Source: a virus. From it: a DNA stretch of 64,000 bases. Under the pieces are notes generated by a model that worked only from the letters and a program-made list of their open reading frames with translations, had not been told where the DNA came from and did not search any database. Made by a program: the position numbers and the translations under genes. Every line of letters begins with the position of its first letter. Positions within the stretch are counted from its first letter, which is position 1. The stretch lies in IMG/VR virus record IMGVR_UViG_3300045988_142085, positions 128,001 to 192,000 of that record, one strand, 5' to 3'. Of the stretch, positions 9,122-15,260 are shown one piece after another.

Positions 9122-9160
9122 GAATTATATTACAAAGAAAGCCTGTCTTATGACAGGCTA
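9122..9160 (-). terminator. Rho-independent terminator downstream of dnaE
   Basis: Perfect 8-bp stem AGCCUGUC-AUAA-GACAGGCU followed by UUCUUUGUAAUAUAA on the minus strand. The dnaE stop codon lies inside the 5' arm and loop. Confidence 0.55.
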
Positions 9161-11100
9161 ACTTTCTTAACAATCATCTTAGAATCAGATTCTTTTTTGC
9201 CAGATAAATAGACTGTTTCGCCATACTTAATATAAGGCAAATTATTTAAATAAATAGAACTGAATACGATCAAATCAATTTCGACGCCGCCACCAACATC
9301 GCCTTTACAAAATGCCATAAGATTGCCGGACTTATCTTTTCGTTCATCGACTTTGGTGATTCTAACTTTAACGTTTTCTACTTCTGTTTTATCTTCCATA
9401 GAAAACCATTCTGGTGTATATGTTACCGGGCAATTTAATGTGTCCATTTCAAAGCTCATAATAAGTTCCTTTCCATAATTATCATTATTTAAACGTTCAT
9501 CTTTATCTTTTCTTAAATCATAAAACTGATTCATTAATTTTAAACGATTACTTTCGATATTAGAGAAAGCACCCGACTTAATTAAAGATGAACCAACACG
9601 TTTATTAAACGCTTTTTTACCAATTTTATTCATAGCATCTTCTAAAGAAGTGTAAGGTCGATGTTCAATTATGGCAGGTATGGAAGATAGACCCACGCCC
9701 TTAATGGACCCAAGACCAAATAAGATAGTGTTTCCATTAGGAGTAAAATCGAGATTTGATACATTAATGTCCGGAACTTCAACGTCGATCCCTTCCTTTC
9801 TAACCAATGGAATATAACGAACTAAATCTTCTAAAGATTGCATCGATAAATATGCAGCAAAGAATTCTACTGGATGATACAATTTAAGCCAAGTAGTAAG
9901 CATACTGGTAAATGAGTAGGCTACAGCATGAGATTTGTTAAATAAATAATTTGAATATCCTTGTATTGTTTCAAAATAATCTTCCATTTCTTTCTCAGTA
10001 TAACCATTAGCAAGAGCACCTTTAATTTCAGGACCATATTTACCTTTAGGGTCATACCAAGGAGCTTTATCGTCTTGTTCCCAACCTTCTGGACCTTCAC
10101 AATTTTTCTTGCCATAAATATGACAACGTTTAAGCATAGGCATTTTATCTGCTTTTTTCTTGGCCAGAATTTTTCTAGAAAGTGAATCTGCTTGGTTATC
10201 ATCAAAGCCAGAAACTTGTTTAGAGATCATCATAATCTGCTCTTGATACGGGATTACAGAATATGTATTACTTAAAATATTATCGATACCGCGTAAAGGA
10301 GCAGTTAATTCCTCTTTACCTTGTTTACGCTTAGCATATTGATGGTGCATATTTGCACTTAATGGGCCCGGTCTCAAAAGTGCCGTGGTTGCCGCAATAT
10401 CGTCGAAGCAAGTTGGCTTCATCTCTTTTAAATAATCTTTAAACATATCAGATTCTAATTGGAACACGCAATCTGATTTAGCTTGTGCCAATAATTTATA
10501 TAATTTTTTATCTTCGATATCGAAGCTATCATATAACCATTGAACATCTTTATTTAAATGTCTTAATGTTGTTTCTATTATGGATAATGTTTTAAGACCG
10601 AGGATGTCGAGTTTTGCTGTACCTAGTTCTTCACATTCAGTACCTGTAAATAACGTAATTGTTACGCCGTCAGCATCAGTACGTGTCGGAAAATAATCAT
10701 CGACACGACAAGGCATTGCTAGAATACCAGAAGCATGAACACCGAAGTTACGTTTAAGACCTTCGAATGCACGAGCCAATCTAAATAATTCTTTATTGTC
10801 GACTTCTAATTTCTGCCATTTAGTATATAAAGATTTTTCTGTTTCGTTGCCATCTTTTAATGCATCATAATGTTTAAACTTTGGTTGAGGAGGTACGACA
10901 TCTTTAAAGTCGTCAATAATTTTAGATAATGCATTCATTTTATCGAATGGAATTTTAAGTGCGCGACCAATATCTTTTAGGCCAGATTTAACGCCCATTT
11001 GAGAATATGTACCAATATGCGCTACGTTACTTTCGCCGTATAAATCTTTAATATGTTCAATAACTTTGTCTCGACCAAAGTAGCTAAAATCTGAATCTAT
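9148..11100 (-). CDS. dnaE: DNA polymerase III alpha (DnaE-type), exon 2: C-terminal ~650 aa with palm C-part, fingers and OB fold
   Basis: The frame is open upstream of the first Met back to 11100 and encodes IDSDFSYFGRDKVIEHIKDLYGESNVAHIGTYSQMGVKSG..., which is the canonical continuation of the PDIDIDF palm motif. No start codon or RBS at the 5' end. An in-frame TAA lies immediately upstream, inside the intervening sequence. Confidence 0.8.
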   Translation of the reverse strand: MDSDFSYFGRDKVIEHIKDLYGESNVAHIGTYSQMGVKSGLKDIGRALKIPFDKMNALSKIIDDFKDVVPPQPKFKHYDALKDGNETEKSLYTKWQKLEVDNKELFRLARAFEGLKRNFGVHASGILAMPCRVDDYFPTRTDADGVTITLFTGTECEELGTAKLDILGLKTLSIIETTLRHLNKDVQWLYDSFDIEDKKLYKLLAQAKSDCVFQLESDMFKDYLKEMKPTCFDDIAATTALLRPGPLSANMHHQYAKRKQGKEELTAPLRGIDNILSNTYSVIPYQEQIMMISKQVSGFDDNQADSLSRKILAKKKADKMPMLKRCHIYGKKNCEGPEGWEQDDKAPWYDPKGKYGPEIKGALANGYTEKEMEDYFETIQGYSNYLFNKSHAVAYSFTSMLTTWLKLYHPVEFFAAYLSMQSLEDLVRYIPLVRKEGIDVEVPDINVSNLDFTPNGNTILFGLGSIKGVGLSSIPAIIEHRPYTSLEDAMNKIGKKAFNKRVGSSLIKSGAFSNIESNRLKLMNQFYDLRKDKDERLNNDNYGKELIMSFEMDTLNCPVTYTPEWFSMEDKTEVENVKVRITKVDERKDKSGNLMAFCKGDVGGGVEIDLIVFSSIYLNNLPYIKYGETVYLSGKKESDSKMIVKKVSLS

Positions 11101-12294
11101 CTTTTACACCCTAGCTTTCGCTATATTTATTAAGGAATAGACCATATCTTCACCATATTTTTATTTTTAAAATAAAAACTTAGGTTGCTCCATTTCGGGC
11201 TTATCACCCTACGTCCCTTTGGACTGGCCGTTGAACGTTCCCCTATTCGAGGCTTCGCTGCTGATTTTCCAATCTTGTCTTTTTTTAGCATATCACACTT
11301 TTGCTTATTTCATCAATATGTTGTAGCAAGACAAGCTCTAAGGATGTTCCAGCAATTTAGAGCTCTTTAAACTTTAGATTTCTCTAAAGCACGACTATTG
11401 TTTAAATTGCATAAATCTAAATATCTTTGATATTTTCTATTCAAATATATCGTTGCATTTTTATATAATAGATCTAAAATTTTTTGTGTTTTTAAGTTTC
11501 CACCAAATTCTAAAGACATAACTTCTTGATAATCTTTTCTTTTATAATATTTATTAGCAGAAAAGCCAAGTTTTTCTTCTATATAATTATTAACAAAATC
11601 AAGAAATTTTTTAGTTGAAACTAATTTAAAAGCATAACTGTTACTTAATTCTGTGTTGGTGTGAGCAATAGAACCATTCCCATCAAAATATCCTCGTATA
11701 AAATCTGATACATAATTTTCTAATAAAGATATGTCTGGAGGAATTAAAATATTTGTTTTGTGTTCTACTAAGTTATATTTTAATAAATCATTAAACATAA
11801 TTTCAGAATAATATATTATTCTACTATAGCTATTTTTAGAATAAGAGTTTTTAGTTGCTTCATATGTTTTAATGGGATGATTACTCTCTAAACTTTTATT
11901 TAATTTTTCTAAATGAGTATAATCACAAGTAGACAATGTAAGACCTACTTTGTATGAATTATTATTTTTAGAAATATATCCATCAGCCATTAAAAAACCT
12001 AACCAATATGCTTTTTCTTCTGTGTCTATTTTATTGAAAAATTTTTCATTAAAATGATAGCGTGAATTAGCTTCTCTATGAGATCTAGGCGTTAAATTTT
12101 TCTTAATAAAGTATGAAACTTTTCCAGTACTAATACCTAATTCTTTTGCTATATATGGTGATCCATGTTTTTTATTATATAAATCTACAATTTTATTTTG
12201 AATTTCTTTTGATAATTTTGACATATATGTTACCTCATATTTATATTGATTTATAAATATTATAACATATATAATTATCTTATGCAATCATATA
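11101..12294 (-). mobile_element. Intervening sequence (probable group I intron, ~1194 nt) interrupting dnaE; carries a LAGLIDADG homing endonuclease ORF
   Basis: Exon 1 ends ..CCA GAU (last nt U) and the IVS ends ..UAAAAG (last nt G), matching group I conventions. Joining restores LPD|IDSDF in frame. The 3' 266 nt (11101..11366) is GC-richer and non-coding. The P1-P9 fold was not verified. Confidence 0.5.
11367..12224 (-). CDS. LAGLIDADG homing endonuclease, double-motif monomeric type, intron-encoded
   Basis: Motifs WLGFLMADGYI and IRGYFDGNGSI about 100 aa apart. Probable start is Met22 of the listed ORF (ATG 12224..12222) with GAGGU 8 nt upstream. N-terminal HTH-like region. Confidence 0.8.
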   Translation of the reverse strand: MSKLSKEIQNKIVDLYNKKHGSPYIAKELGISTGKVSYFIKKNLTPRSHREANSRYHFNEKFFNKIDTEEKAYWLGFLMADGYISKNNNSYKVGLTLSTCDYTHLEKLNKSLESNHPIKTYEATKNSYSKNSYSRIIYYSEIMFNDLLKYNLVEHKTNILIPPDISLLENYVSDFIRGYFDGNGSIAHTNTELSNSYAFKLVSTKKFLDFVNNYIEEKLGFSANKYYKRKDYQEVMSLEFGGNLKTQKILDLLYKNATIYLNRKYQRYLDLCNLNNSRALEKSKV

Positions 12295-13686
12295 ATCTGG
12301 CAAGCCTGTTCTGTCGATAGTCAAAAAACGACCGAACAGTAAATCATATTTAATAGGATCGATATTTTTAGTGATGCCAATACACCATAATACTAAACTA
12401 CCTGCAGCGCTCCCGCGTCCAGGACCAGTCATTACACCATTATTATCGGCCCAGTTAATATATTCACGAACGATAAGCATATAATCAGCGAAATCTTTAT
12501 AGTTAATAATGTTAAGTTCATACGCTAAACGTTGTTCATATCGTCTAATATCGTTAGCGATATAATCATATCTTTTTGCTAACTCATATAAACCTTTGTA
12601 AGCTAGTTCACGCAATTTACGTTTAGTATTTTTAACGCCAGGAAGTTTAGGCATTAATGGTACATCACTGCCTAATTTATATTCGCCGACTTTATTTGCG
12701 ATTTCTTGAGTATTATGCATTGCTTCTAAATATAAAGCATATTTTTCACGAGCAACACTTACTTCAGTTTCAGACGTATTAATTAAATATTTAAATCCGT
12801 CTTGCATTTCTTCTTCGTTTTTAAGCCAGAAGTTATGATCGTATTTCATACGGTTAGGATTATAAATATCGGTGCCAGTGCCGACACATACTAATACATC
12901 ATGATCTTTATTATCCTCTTTGAGGACATAATGTACATCGCTTGTCGCAACGAGTTTAATATTATGCTTCGTCGACATTGTTAAATAAAAATTATTTACT
13001 TTGACTTGGTCGTCGAATGCATTAGGTTGAACTTCGAGATAGAAGTCGTCACCGAAAATATCTTTATATTCTAAGATAAGTTCTTCGGCTTTTTCTAAAT
13101 CGTCTTTACGAACACGACTTGCTACCATATTCGCAACACATGCTGTCGTACAAATAACGCCTTCGCTATATTTACGAAGCATCGGCATATCGAACAAAAA
13201 GCGCCCGTTGTATGTACATACTTTAGCAGATTCACTTTGTAATTTAATTAAATTATTTAACCCTGTTTGATTTTTAGCTAATAAGATTAAATGATATTGT
13301 CTTGTGTCGTACATATGTTTTTCTGCACGAGCCTTAATATCTTTAATGCCTTTAACGCCTTTTTTGCCGGACGCTAAATCTTCAGCTTCTTTTTCTGTTA
13401 AGTCTCCGGCTTCTTTCGCCTTCAAAGCCGCATCGGCCCAGCGTTCTTCAACAGGTTTAGATAATGAAAGAGTGTCCCATGTTTGATATCCTTCATAACC
13501 TAAGATAGGCTTAACACCTTGTTTTTTACATTCTTGTAAAAATTCATAAATACCGCCCATATGATTATGGTCTGTGATGGCTAAACTTTCCATACCGAGT
13601 TCTTTAGCACGGCTAACTAACTTCGGTATATGACAATAGCCATCTAAAAAGCTATATGATGTATGTACATGTAAATGCGTAAACAT
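12295..13686 (-). CDS. dnaE: DNA polymerase III alpha (DnaE-type), exon 1: PHP domain plus N-terminal part of palm
   Basis: MFTHLHVHTSYSFLDGYCHIPKLVSRAKELGMESLAITDHNHMGG is a PHP domain. GPGRGSAAGSLVLWCIGITKNIDPIKYDLLFGRFL is a PolIII alpha palm signature. AAGGAGG RBS before the ATG at 13686. The coding frame terminates 5 codons into the IVS. Confidence 0.85.
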
Positions 13687-13748: not shown

Positions 13749-14987
13749 CTATTCTAACCAATAAATTTTATTAAATTTCCAAATTAATTTACATTTTTGT
13801 GCGTTTACTTTTTTACAGTGTTTAGTTTTTGATTGAAAATTCAAAACTAATTGTTCTGGGTATAAAGCTGTAACATAGCCTGTGTGAATCTCTCCATTTT
13901 TATACGTATAAGAAACTAAATCTCTATGCTTAATCCCTAGTACATTATTAGTTTTTGCTTTTGATTTTCTCCTCATTGGTTTAATAGTCCATTCTTTTAT
14001 ATTGCAAGAATCTGGAATGTCATTTGTAATACATATAGCATCATTACTATGAGATTTTTCTATATTCCATTCAATTCTTTTATTCGCAGTTGCGCCGCCA
14101 TTAGTCAAATGCAATAATCCTAATTCAGATATTTTATTTCGTAAATAATTTTTACCTTGCATAACATGCATTGCATAATCGAATCGTTTAGGCTTAGAAT
14201 TAATTATTTTAAAATATTTATCTTCAAAATCTTTTTCTTTACCTTTTGTTTTGTCATGACATTTGAAACAAAGAGTAATTAAATTTCCAATAGTATCTGC
14301 TCCATGATATTTTCTTGCTCTTATGTGATGTACTTCTAATTTGCAATTAGATTTTCCACATTCTTGACATTTATAGTTATCACGAATAATAGTTGCTTTT
14401 CTAAGATTTTCATCTAAACGATTAGATTTTTGATATTGCCATTTATAAGGTTTATAATCGTCTGTCATTGCACGAATATCAATACAAACATCTTCAAGAT
14501 AATATTCTTTAATATTTATCCATTTATTTAGTTGATATAATACTCTTAAAATAGCATCTTTCTTTTGTTTAATAGTTGGTGTTAATCTACCGACTTTTTT
14601 GGAAGATGAGCGATTATTAAACCTCATTGGTCTATGTCTTTTATGGTAACGATGATATTGTCTATATCTACGTCTAGTATCCATCAAATGTTTCACATCT
14701 TGACGTTGTTCAATAATCCCTTTAAATACTACTTTATTTTTAGTAGAACATTTCTGAACAATAGCTATACCAACATGTATAGAACCATCGTCTATACCAC
14801 AAATTATATAACTTTTATCATTTTCATTAAATTCAACTTTTTTATTTAGTTGAATTACCATTGGGTATTTAGATTTTAATTTTGCTCTGCCTTTTCTAAT
14901 TAGATACCAGCCTTTATTCACTTTTGTTGGCGCTAATGGTTTATTATCTTTATCAATTACAAAGCAATATTCAATTTTATTTTCCAT
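13749..14987 (-). CDS. iscB: IscB-like RNA-guided nuclease (OMEGA family; RuvC-I / Arg-rich bridge helix / RuvC-II / HNH / RuvC-III), solo with no TnpA
   Basis: N-terminus [47 protein letters not shown] is PLMP-like. The segment [17 protein letters not shown] is Ruv[24 protein letters not shown] is the bridge helix. LEDVCID is Ruv[38 protein letters not shown] is [13 protein letters not shown] is RuvC-III. RBS AAGGAAGG before the ATG near 14987. The listed ORF extends 81 codons further upstream, probably spurious read-through of the omegaRNA region. Confidence 0.8.
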
Positions 14988-15260
14988 TTCTGGAAACCTT
15001 CCTTTCGGAGTATTTTTCGTCTTGCCAATGTCGTGGATGGTGCATGTGTTTCTCTGTTGTCTATACAGGACGTTAGTATAGTTTCTTGATTGGCACTCAC
15101 AGAGCTTCAGACTGACGAGCACATCTAAAGGTGTGTCTTTAACCTTTTCCATAACGTAGTTCATATCTGCAGCATATCTTTCGATAGCAGCAATCACTAA
15201 GGCTAGAAACCTATTATCAAGCAAATACAAATAAGAAATATAATATATATTCGCCCACTT
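14975..15260 (-). ncRNA. Candidate omegaRNA scaffold for IscB (predicted from position and composition only)
   Basis: IscB omegaRNAs are encoded immediately 5' of, and overlapping, the iscB start. This ~280-nt interval is GC-richer than its surroundings and has local complementarity (e.g. CUCUGU...ACAGAG). The guide would lie at its 5' end near 15245..15297. Confidence 0.3.

Follow-up and report, generated by a model that had tools for sequence, protein, structure and literature searches.

In genes of DNA metabolism, homing introns are known to occupy those catalytic codons that are most conserved. Among phages, group I introns have been described in the family A polymerase genes of the Bacillus phages SPO1, SP82 and Bastille, where they encode the HNH nicking endonucleases I-HmuI, I-HmuII and I-BasI, and introns of subgroup IA are present in the td, nrdB and nrdD genes of phage T4 (literature cited within PMC2504315 and PMC2814812). 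In addition, a self-splicing intron within Bacillus phage G's gene for DNA polymerase has been mentioned in one line by Iyer et al. 2021 (PMC7824862). The present analysis concerns an element found in the IMG/VR virus record IMGVR_UViG_3300045988_142085, of which positions 128,001 to 192,000 were analysed as one window of 64,000 nucleotides (nt); coordinates given below without another identifier are those of the window, and all features described in it lie on the minus strand. The element interrupts dnaE, the gene for the alpha subunit of DNA polymerase III (Pol III), and is very probably a splicing-competent mobile group I intron inserted between the codon for the first catalytic aspartate and the codon that follows it.

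An earlier note, made from the letters of this DNA alone, had described dnaE as interrupted within its catalytic motif by an element of about 1.2 kb bearing a LAGLIDADG gene; it had also identified the end of exon 1, an exon-2 frame open from 11100, a U as the last exon-1 nucleotide and a G as the last nucleotide of the element. The open reading frames (ORFs), translations and Pfam matches agree with that description: the insert measures 1194 nt (11101..12294) and its encoded protein matches Pfam LAGLIDADG_3. The 464 codons of exon 1 (12295..13686) encode a PHP domain and the beginning of the catalytic domain of Pol III alpha, and exon 2 (9148..11100) comprises 650 codons and a stop. The exon-1 ORF (13686..12280) encodes 468 amino acids (aa) and ends in ...GRFLTIDRTGLPD followed by YMIA and a stop, its frame closing 4 codons into the insert (stop at 12282..12280). 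The exon-2 frame reads IDSDFSYFGRDKVIEHIKDLYG... from 11100 and remains open down to 9148; it begins with AUA GAU UCA GAU UUU (I465, D466, S467, D468 and F469). The last exon-1 codon is GAU, which specifies D464, the equivalent of Escherichia coli D401 in the alignment, and the insert lies one codon before the second catalytic aspartate.

The boundaries of the intron could be fixed because the locus was compared with an intronless allele (L002) and with an allele holding an intron without an ORF (L001). The former, 95% identical at the amino acid level, reads ...GGCTTGCCTGAC|GTAGACTCAGAT... (LPD|VDSDF) and has no insert at the site, and the latter has at this position a 305-nt intron, flanked by ...CCAGAU and GUAGAC.... 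The window intron equals the 305-nt intron plus about 890 nt inserted right after its first 3 nt. The 5' splice site accordingly follows U12295, which ends exon 1, and the 3' splice site follows G11101 (omega-G), the intron beginning with UAUAUG... and finishing with ...GUAAAAG. By these comparisons the intron sits between the codon for D464 and the next codon, and the predicted junction of the spliced mRNA is ...CUUGCCAGAU|AUAGAUUCAG....

Joining GAU (12295) to AUA (11100) gives a protein of 1114 aa. The expectation that joining the exons would restore the polymerase motif was borne out by two comparisons: the exon-1 ORF covers positions 2-104 of the Pfam DNA_pol3_alpha profile and exon 2 covers positions 104-260, so that the halves abut at the junction, and the junction region aligns without gaps with residues 354-569 of E. 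coli DnaE and 417-631 of Taq Pol III alpha. Counted along this alignment, D464 corresponds to E. coli D401, D466 to D403 and the aspartate of the KLD motif to D555, which are known from the literature as the three catalytic carboxylates of Pol III alpha. The Pfam domains detected in dnaE are PHP, DNA_pol3_alpha, DNA_pol3_finger and HHH_6, with the finger and HhH domains in exon 2. Moreover, uninterrupted proteins with a length of exactly 1114 aa form more than 55 clusters in a large protein collection; they are 89-96% identical to the spliced DnaE and read ...LPD|VDSDF... across the junction, which answers the earlier suggestion that intronless alleles of related phages be compared. These uninterrupted alleles were found on contigs of about 220-235 kb, and the source of the window is an uncultured jumbo phage. 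A megablast search of the dnaE region and of a neighbouring 24-kb block against sequenced phages gave no match, and the nearest relative at the protein level was Moorella phage MTATph1 (36%); judged from these searches, the phage is one without a close cultured relative.

The same arrangement could also be read as a split dnaE, whose halves are translated separately and then assemble, with the insert being a free-standing endonuclease gene plus a spacer. Public assemblies indeed annotate separate ORFs of 468 aa and of 616 aa or 597 aa, and there is a precedent near this position in Cellulophaga phage phi13:1 (L060, KC821625, 1292-4892), in which dnaE consists of two abutting ORFs broken a few residues upstream of the same motif. 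In that phage, the first ORF has a tail of about 50 aa without similarity to other DnaE proteins, and the second starts from an ATG of its own and retains LPDIDTDF intact. The window differs in this respect, in that an in-frame TAA (11106..11104) stands two codons 5' of exon 2 and the exon-2 frame offers no ATG, GTG or TTG before codon 35, the ATG at 10998 (Met-499). Upstream of the catalytic aspartates, inspection of the frame revealed neither a start codon nor a ribosome-binding site from which exon 2 could be translated, as the earlier note had stated. An independent C-terminal product would therefore be without D466 and D468, and the break itself would separate two catalytic aspartates that are one residue apart. 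Both halves nevertheless appear to be maintained: between the window and the intronless allele L002, exons 1 and 2 show ratios of nonsynonymous to synonymous substitution rates (dN/dS) of 0.034 and 0.068, respectively, at a dS of about 0.6, which points to strong purifying selection on both exons (dN/dS about 0.05). Since exon 2 is under selection and has no start of its own, joining of the exons at the RNA level is implied.

The RNA that would carry out this joining was recognised by its family profile and by covariation. The Rfam family RF00028 (Intron_gpI) matches 11414..11119 over the full model (1-253), with 59.4 bits against a gathering score of 50 and an E-value of 4e-14, and the proposal to run an Infernal group I model over the insert thus led to a positive result. 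The 5' strand of P1 (12292..12297, GAU|UAU) consists of 3 exon nt and 3 intron nt and pairs with the internal guide sequence AUAGUC (11393..11398), which forms the P1 3' strand and lies within the endonuclease codons ...N-S-R.... The ribozyme core, delimited by an RNAalifold consensus and by pair counts that include the P7 pseudoknot, occupies 11109..11390. It contains P2 (11390-11383 / 11378-11371), P3 (11363-11358 / 11192-11187), P4 (11354-11349 / 11264-11259), P5 (11344-11342 / 11270-11268), P5a-c (11335-11274), P6/P6a (11258-11235), P7 (11229-11225 / 11144-11140), P7.1 (11224-11213), P7.2 (11209-11197), P8 (11185-11152) and P9 (11135-11109). The start of the ribozyme precedes the endonuclease stop, the guide sequence and P2 (11390..11371) being within the last 11 codons of the ORF. 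The 266 nt after that stop had been pointed out as richer in G+C, and their content is 37.6% as against 22.8% in the endonuclease ORF, the exons having about 34-35% and the window as a whole 32%.

For the covariation analysis, 13 introns at this dnaE site were aligned with MAFFT after removal of the interior of the P1 loop, and the alignment was folded with RNAalifold. Without any prior structure, the program recovered P1, P2, P3, P4, P5, P5a-c, P6/P6a, P7.1, P7.2, P8 and P9, and 30 of the 83 predicted pairs were compensatory. Addition of the P7 pseudoknot and of the outer P9 stem, and removal of two small competing stems, gave a model of 85 pairs in 17 helices, in which 99.7% of the cells form standard pairs, compared with 36-45% after a shift of the 3' partners by 1-3 columns. 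Changes on both sides were found for 30 of the 85 pairs, and the observed values were reached in none of 500 shuffles. Each of the 13 aligned introns has the U.G wobble at the 5' splice site (U12295.G11395 in the window) and the terminal G; the third intron pair of P1 covaries (UA in 11 sequences, AU in 1), and the intron part of P1 in L001 is UAA paired with UUA, a compensatory difference from the window. Two covarying hairpins, P7.1 and P7.2, are located between the 5' strand of P7 and the 3' strand of P3. Such hairpins at this place are the hallmark of subgroup IA in the classification of Michel and Westhof, and the architecture deduced from the alignment is IA-like. Furthermore, the core shares 73-77% identity over about 130-150 nt with introns of sequenced Bacillus, Enterococcus, Streptococcus and Vibrio phages, indicating that the RNA belongs to a common phage intron pool.

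These results bear directly on the split-gene explanation, because the stretch that it treats as a spacer is a covarying group I ribozyme and because ORF-less 305-nt versions at the same site are not explained by a free-standing nuclease gene. We consider it very improbable that dnaE is simply split. The preference for splicing over two separate polypeptides, which the earlier note had based on features of this one locus, is strengthened, with covariation and a presence/absence polymorphism appearing as independent lines of support.

A search of IMG/VR with a degenerate P7 pattern returned 55 loci. In twelve of these, or 13 when L001 is included, the codon boundary of dnaE that is occupied in the window holds a core recognisably related to that of the window, and their exons range from 96% down to 47% identity to those of the window. 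Seven of the 13 introns are without an ORF (304-319 nt) and six contain an endonuclease gene (1195-1214 nt). Three allelic states are therefore represented at one codon boundary, namely the intronless state (L002), the ORF-less intron (L001 and L037) and the endonuclease-bearing intron (the window, L038, L042 and L022), and this presence/absence pattern at one precise site fits a homing cycle. A distant endonuclease homolog (L061, 45% identical) was found at the same PD|VD boundary in the dnaE of another large phage; its splice site is inferred to lie at the same boundary as in the window, and in its P1 a UGU is paired with ACA, a further compensatory variant. Another homolog (L063, 41% identical), with a related core, is located in the dnaE of another large phage (L063:3440-4685), where the intron appears to follow the second aspartate codon (PDVD|LDC), 6 nt downstream of the window site. 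Because the exon pairing in the window and in L063 involves just 3 nt (GAU), it could allow the intron lineage to hop between the aspartate codons of the catalytic motif.

The homing endonuclease gene (11367..12224) encodes 285 aa, starts with the ATG at 12224 and has a stop ending at 11367. A GAGG at 12236..12233, 8 nt 5' of the ATG, is the putative Shine-Dalgarno sequence of the endonuclease itself. A promoter and terminator scan of 10900-12500 returned 10 promoter-like sites, as against 10.8 expected, and 0 terminators, and provided no evidence for a separate endonuclease promoter. The ORF is placed in the P1 loop, in a frame different from that of exon 1, and its last 11 codons (NNSRALEKSKV) and stop are the guide sequence and P2. 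Pfam LAGLIDADG_3 matches the protein in 2 stretches (E-value 2e-11), and more than 4000 homologs were found. The first LAGLIDADG motif is KAYWLGFLMADGY (D81) and the second is FIRGYFDGNG (D181); both, with these acidic residues, are invariant among 32 aligned homologs, in the forms KAYWLGFxxADGY and FIRGYFDG(D/N)G. A sequence search of the Protein Data Bank gave no match at E-values up to 1. The AlphaFold model of the protein (mean confidence score, pLDDT, of 91.5) was matched by Foldseek to I-AniI, the bI3 maturase, the I-OnuI family, I-SmaMI and I-Tsp061I (E-values of 3e-10 and above, probability 1.0, TM-score about 0.5), and displays the two-domain pseudo-symmetric alpha-beta-beta-alpha-beta-beta-alpha fold, with a helix-turn-helix region of about 55 residues N-terminal to the nuclease core. 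Taken from sequence and model, the encoded protein is predicted to be a monomeric, double-motif LAGLIDADG homing endonuclease with an intact ORF. At least 23 contigs, which come from several samples and of which the longest measures 236 kb, encode the identical 285-aa protein.

Two other ways in which such a protein may be linked to its host gene were considered and rejected. An intein is incompatible with an exon-1 frame that stops after 4 codons, an endonuclease in another frame and the absence of a Hint domain in the Pfam search. Similarly, an endonuclease fused in frame to exon 1, as in many mitochondrial introns, is at odds with the different frames and with the stop at 12282..12280.

Homing cycles include degenerate stages, and the element could accordingly be a decayed one, with an intron that has lost splicing and a dnaE that is a pseudogene, the phage being replicated by another polymerase. 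The state of every component speaks against such decay. All 85 modelled pairs are standard in the window's own copy of the intron; the endonuclease ORF is intact and every invariant residue of the family is present; and the arrangement is identical on the at least 23 contigs from several samples mentioned above. Strong purifying selection on both halves, with the low dN/dS and the dS of about 0.6 relative to the intronless allele, is also hard to reconcile with a dead dnaE. The chance that the element has decayed in this way is very slim.

If the intron is functional, the following course of events may be proposed. In the pre-mRNA, GAU|UAU would pair with the guide AUAGUC about 900 nt downstream to form P1, in which the U at the splice site would take part in a U.G wobble. 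P7 would bind a free guanosine, which would attack after U12295, and the 3'-OH of exon 1, once freed, would attack after the terminal G at 11101. The exons would be ligated as GAU|AUA and the 1114-aa DnaE would be translated, whereas unspliced RNA would give only the 468-aa fragment containing the PHP domain. In co-infecting relatives, the 285-aa endonuclease would cut intronless dnaE around ...CCTGAC|GTAGAC..., and repair templated by the intron-bearing copy would spread the element.

A tentative and rather doubtful extension of this scheme is that endonuclease synthesis and maturation of the polymerase mRNA are interlocked, being mutually exclusive on one RNA and forming a built-in switch. 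As the end of the ORF is also the guide sequence and P2, and as the ORF fills the P1 loop, a ribosome finishing the endonuclease would unfold P1/P2, and folded P1/P2 would in turn block the end of the endonuclease ORF. The tail '...(N/H)SR...', which coincides with the guide AGUCGU, persists in the majority of endonuclease homologs as far as about 40-45% identity; in L063 (P0200), the endonuclease tail is unaligned in the (N/H)SR column, yet AGUCGU is retained. The conservation of the tail and the presence of L061 at the same dnaE site fit such an interlock.

Several points weigh against a splicing-competent mobile intron and should be considered together. Splicing, endonuclease cleavage and homing are all inferred from sequence. 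A scan of the whole window with Rfam at the gathering threshold and default filters returned no families at all and missed the intron, and the RF00028 match came from a 1.7-kb region searched alone with laxer filters. The miss is probably a filter effect, the intron having been hidden by the speed filters and by the 890-nt, AT-rich insertion in P1; other structured RNAs of the window may have escaped the same scan. The covariation rests on 13 sequences with the P1 loop trimmed, and the shuffle control ignores their relatedness, whereas the control with slid partners corrects for relatedness and is equally clear. Regarding the RNA itself, inspection by eye for a P10, in which the 5' part of the guide sequence would pair with the start of exon 2, revealed no convincing candidate. 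The endonuclease stop lies beyond the guide sequence and P2, so that translating ribosomes would unfold P1/P2 on that transcript. Finally, P1 has just 3 base pairs with the exon and must close over a loop of 893 nt.

The last of these points would also favour a requirement for protein, either the LAGLIDADG protein itself or a host factor, as a maturase. In fungal mitochondria, I-AniI and bI3 are maturases, and I-AniI is a bifunctional endonuclease/maturase; both are among the best structural matches of the window protein. That likeness, however, extends over the whole LAGLIDADG family, including I-OnuI, I-SmaMI and I-Tsp061I, and is not specific to maturases. In addition, the ORF-less introns have the same core at the same site and covary across exons that are 96% to 47% identical, and their retention at the site indicates that the core works without a protein encoded in cis. 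Dependence on a maturase therefore seems unlikely, and a mobile group I intron whose RNA is competent to splice remains the favoured explanation of the locus.

Other insertions surround this site in related genes. Neighbouring codon boundaries of the PDxDxD motif hold introns, after the first aspartate codon in the window and, apparently, after the second in L063 and after CCU in phage G. The dnaE gene of this phage clade is an insertion hotspot, and the window's own allele holds one intron alone. In some dnaE alleles the frame ends at residue 706, and a 350-aa ORF without a Pfam match and a 361-aa C-terminal part come next, in this order; other alleles stop at residue 753. The insertions into dnaE are represented by L058:7122-8659, by protein classes P0072-P0077, P0084-P0105 and P0070, and by L061, which is interrupted at least three times and contains two LAGLIDADG ORFs; an Rfam search of the insert after residue 706, the second insertion of L058 (7000-8800), gave no match. 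Very distant dnaE genes, with about 25% identity, were found in L045, L007, L012, L051 and L005. The first four contain an insert of about 1.1-1.3 kb some 13 codons upstream of the PDxD motif, and L005 represents the exon-2 side alone. The insert core has P6-P7 and P7-P9 stretches in common with the window intron. In L045 (11096-12330), the end of exon 1 shows about 84% DNA similarity to Bacillus phage SPbetaL4, and the insert encodes a homologous LAGLIDADG ORF with helix-turn-helix domains at the C-terminal rather than the N-terminal side.

Immediately upstream of dnaE, an IscB-like ORF is present at 13749..15230 (Pfam RRXRR, E-value 8e-43; HNH, E-value 3e-10). A weak match to the HEARO/omega-RNA family RF02033 was observed at 15010..15218, with 31.3 bits and an E-value of 4.5e-4, below the gathering score of 83. 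As this match overlaps the 5' end of the IscB-like ORF, the true start of the latter is probably an internal ATG. In L001, L002 and L058, a gene of the DHH family directly abuts dnaE, and the IscB/omega-RNA unit of about 1.6 kb is thus an insertion specific to this jumbo-phage genome.

The intron leaves the current understanding of group I introns unchanged. Public assemblies call this locus and many of its relatives as two polymerase fragments and a hypothetical protein, an annotation that should become one 1114-aa DnaE. The tendency of homing introns to choose catalytic codons is now extended to a C-family replicative polymerase. The series of empty, ORF-less and endonuclease-bearing alleles, with exons from 96% to 47% identical, can be used for studies of the homing cycle and of ribozyme covariation. 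Moreover, the clade that includes the endonuclease is a large, uncharacterised group of LAGLIDADG proteins with an N-terminal helix-turn-helix region, and, as the natural target of the enzyme is defined, it may be worth considering as a meganuclease scaffold.

With regard to known systems, the insert of Bacillus phage G (NC_023719) offers a close parallel. Its annotation lists gp329 as a DnaE-like N-terminal part, gp330 as a 'homing endonuclease' and gp331 as a 'DNA polymerase' fragment; the insert is placed at L059:3294-4500, measures 1207 nt and splits KLP|DIDIDF. In both cases the host is a jumbo phage and the interrupted gene encodes a Pol III alpha protein with a PHP domain, and the inserts are similar in size and lie in the same catalytic motif. 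The phage G insert also ends in G, and its last 48 nt, from the 3' strand of P7 to P9, are 81% identical to the window intron; beyond these 48 nt, no similarity to the window intron was detectable, and Rfam gave no match for the insert. On the other hand, the splice site predicted from the phage G sequence lies 3 nt upstream (CCU|GAU, compared with GAU|AUA in the window). The phage G endonuclease is of the GIY-YIG type and shows no significant blastp similarity to the LAGLIDADG protein of the window (best E-value 0.37), and its ORF is situated further 3', just upstream of the 5' strand of P7, rather than in the P1 loop.

The introns of SPO1, SP82, Bastille and T4 resemble that of the window in being IA-type phage introns at highly conserved codons of DNA-metabolism genes, in having the endonuclease gene in a peripheral loop and in their patchy distribution among close relatives. 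They differ from it in several ways: the host gene in the window encodes a C-family polymerase (dnaE), whereas those of SPO1, SP82 and Bastille are of family A; the endonuclease is of the LAGLIDADG type, whereas those of the SPO1, SP82, Bastille and T4 group are HNH or GIY-YIG enzymes; and the ORF in the P1 loop overlaps the guide sequence and P2, unlike in those introns. DnaE inteins, such as the split inteins of cyanobacteria and those of actinobacteriophages, are likewise selfish elements with LAGLIDADG_3-type endonucleases in the same host gene, and one relative of the window DnaE (P0070, 1535 aa) contains an intein with Hint and LAGLIDADG_3 domains. These elements leave at the protein level, whereas the window insert is an RNA ribozyme with stop codons in the exon frame. 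In the full-text literature searched, neither a group I intron at this position in dnaE nor the present lineage was found described, the one related mention being the line on phage G; this is weak evidence given the incomplete coverage of journals. Compared with these systems, the mechanism proposed for the window intron is ordinary, and its novelty lies mainly in the host gene and the precise site, within a large uncultured lineage.

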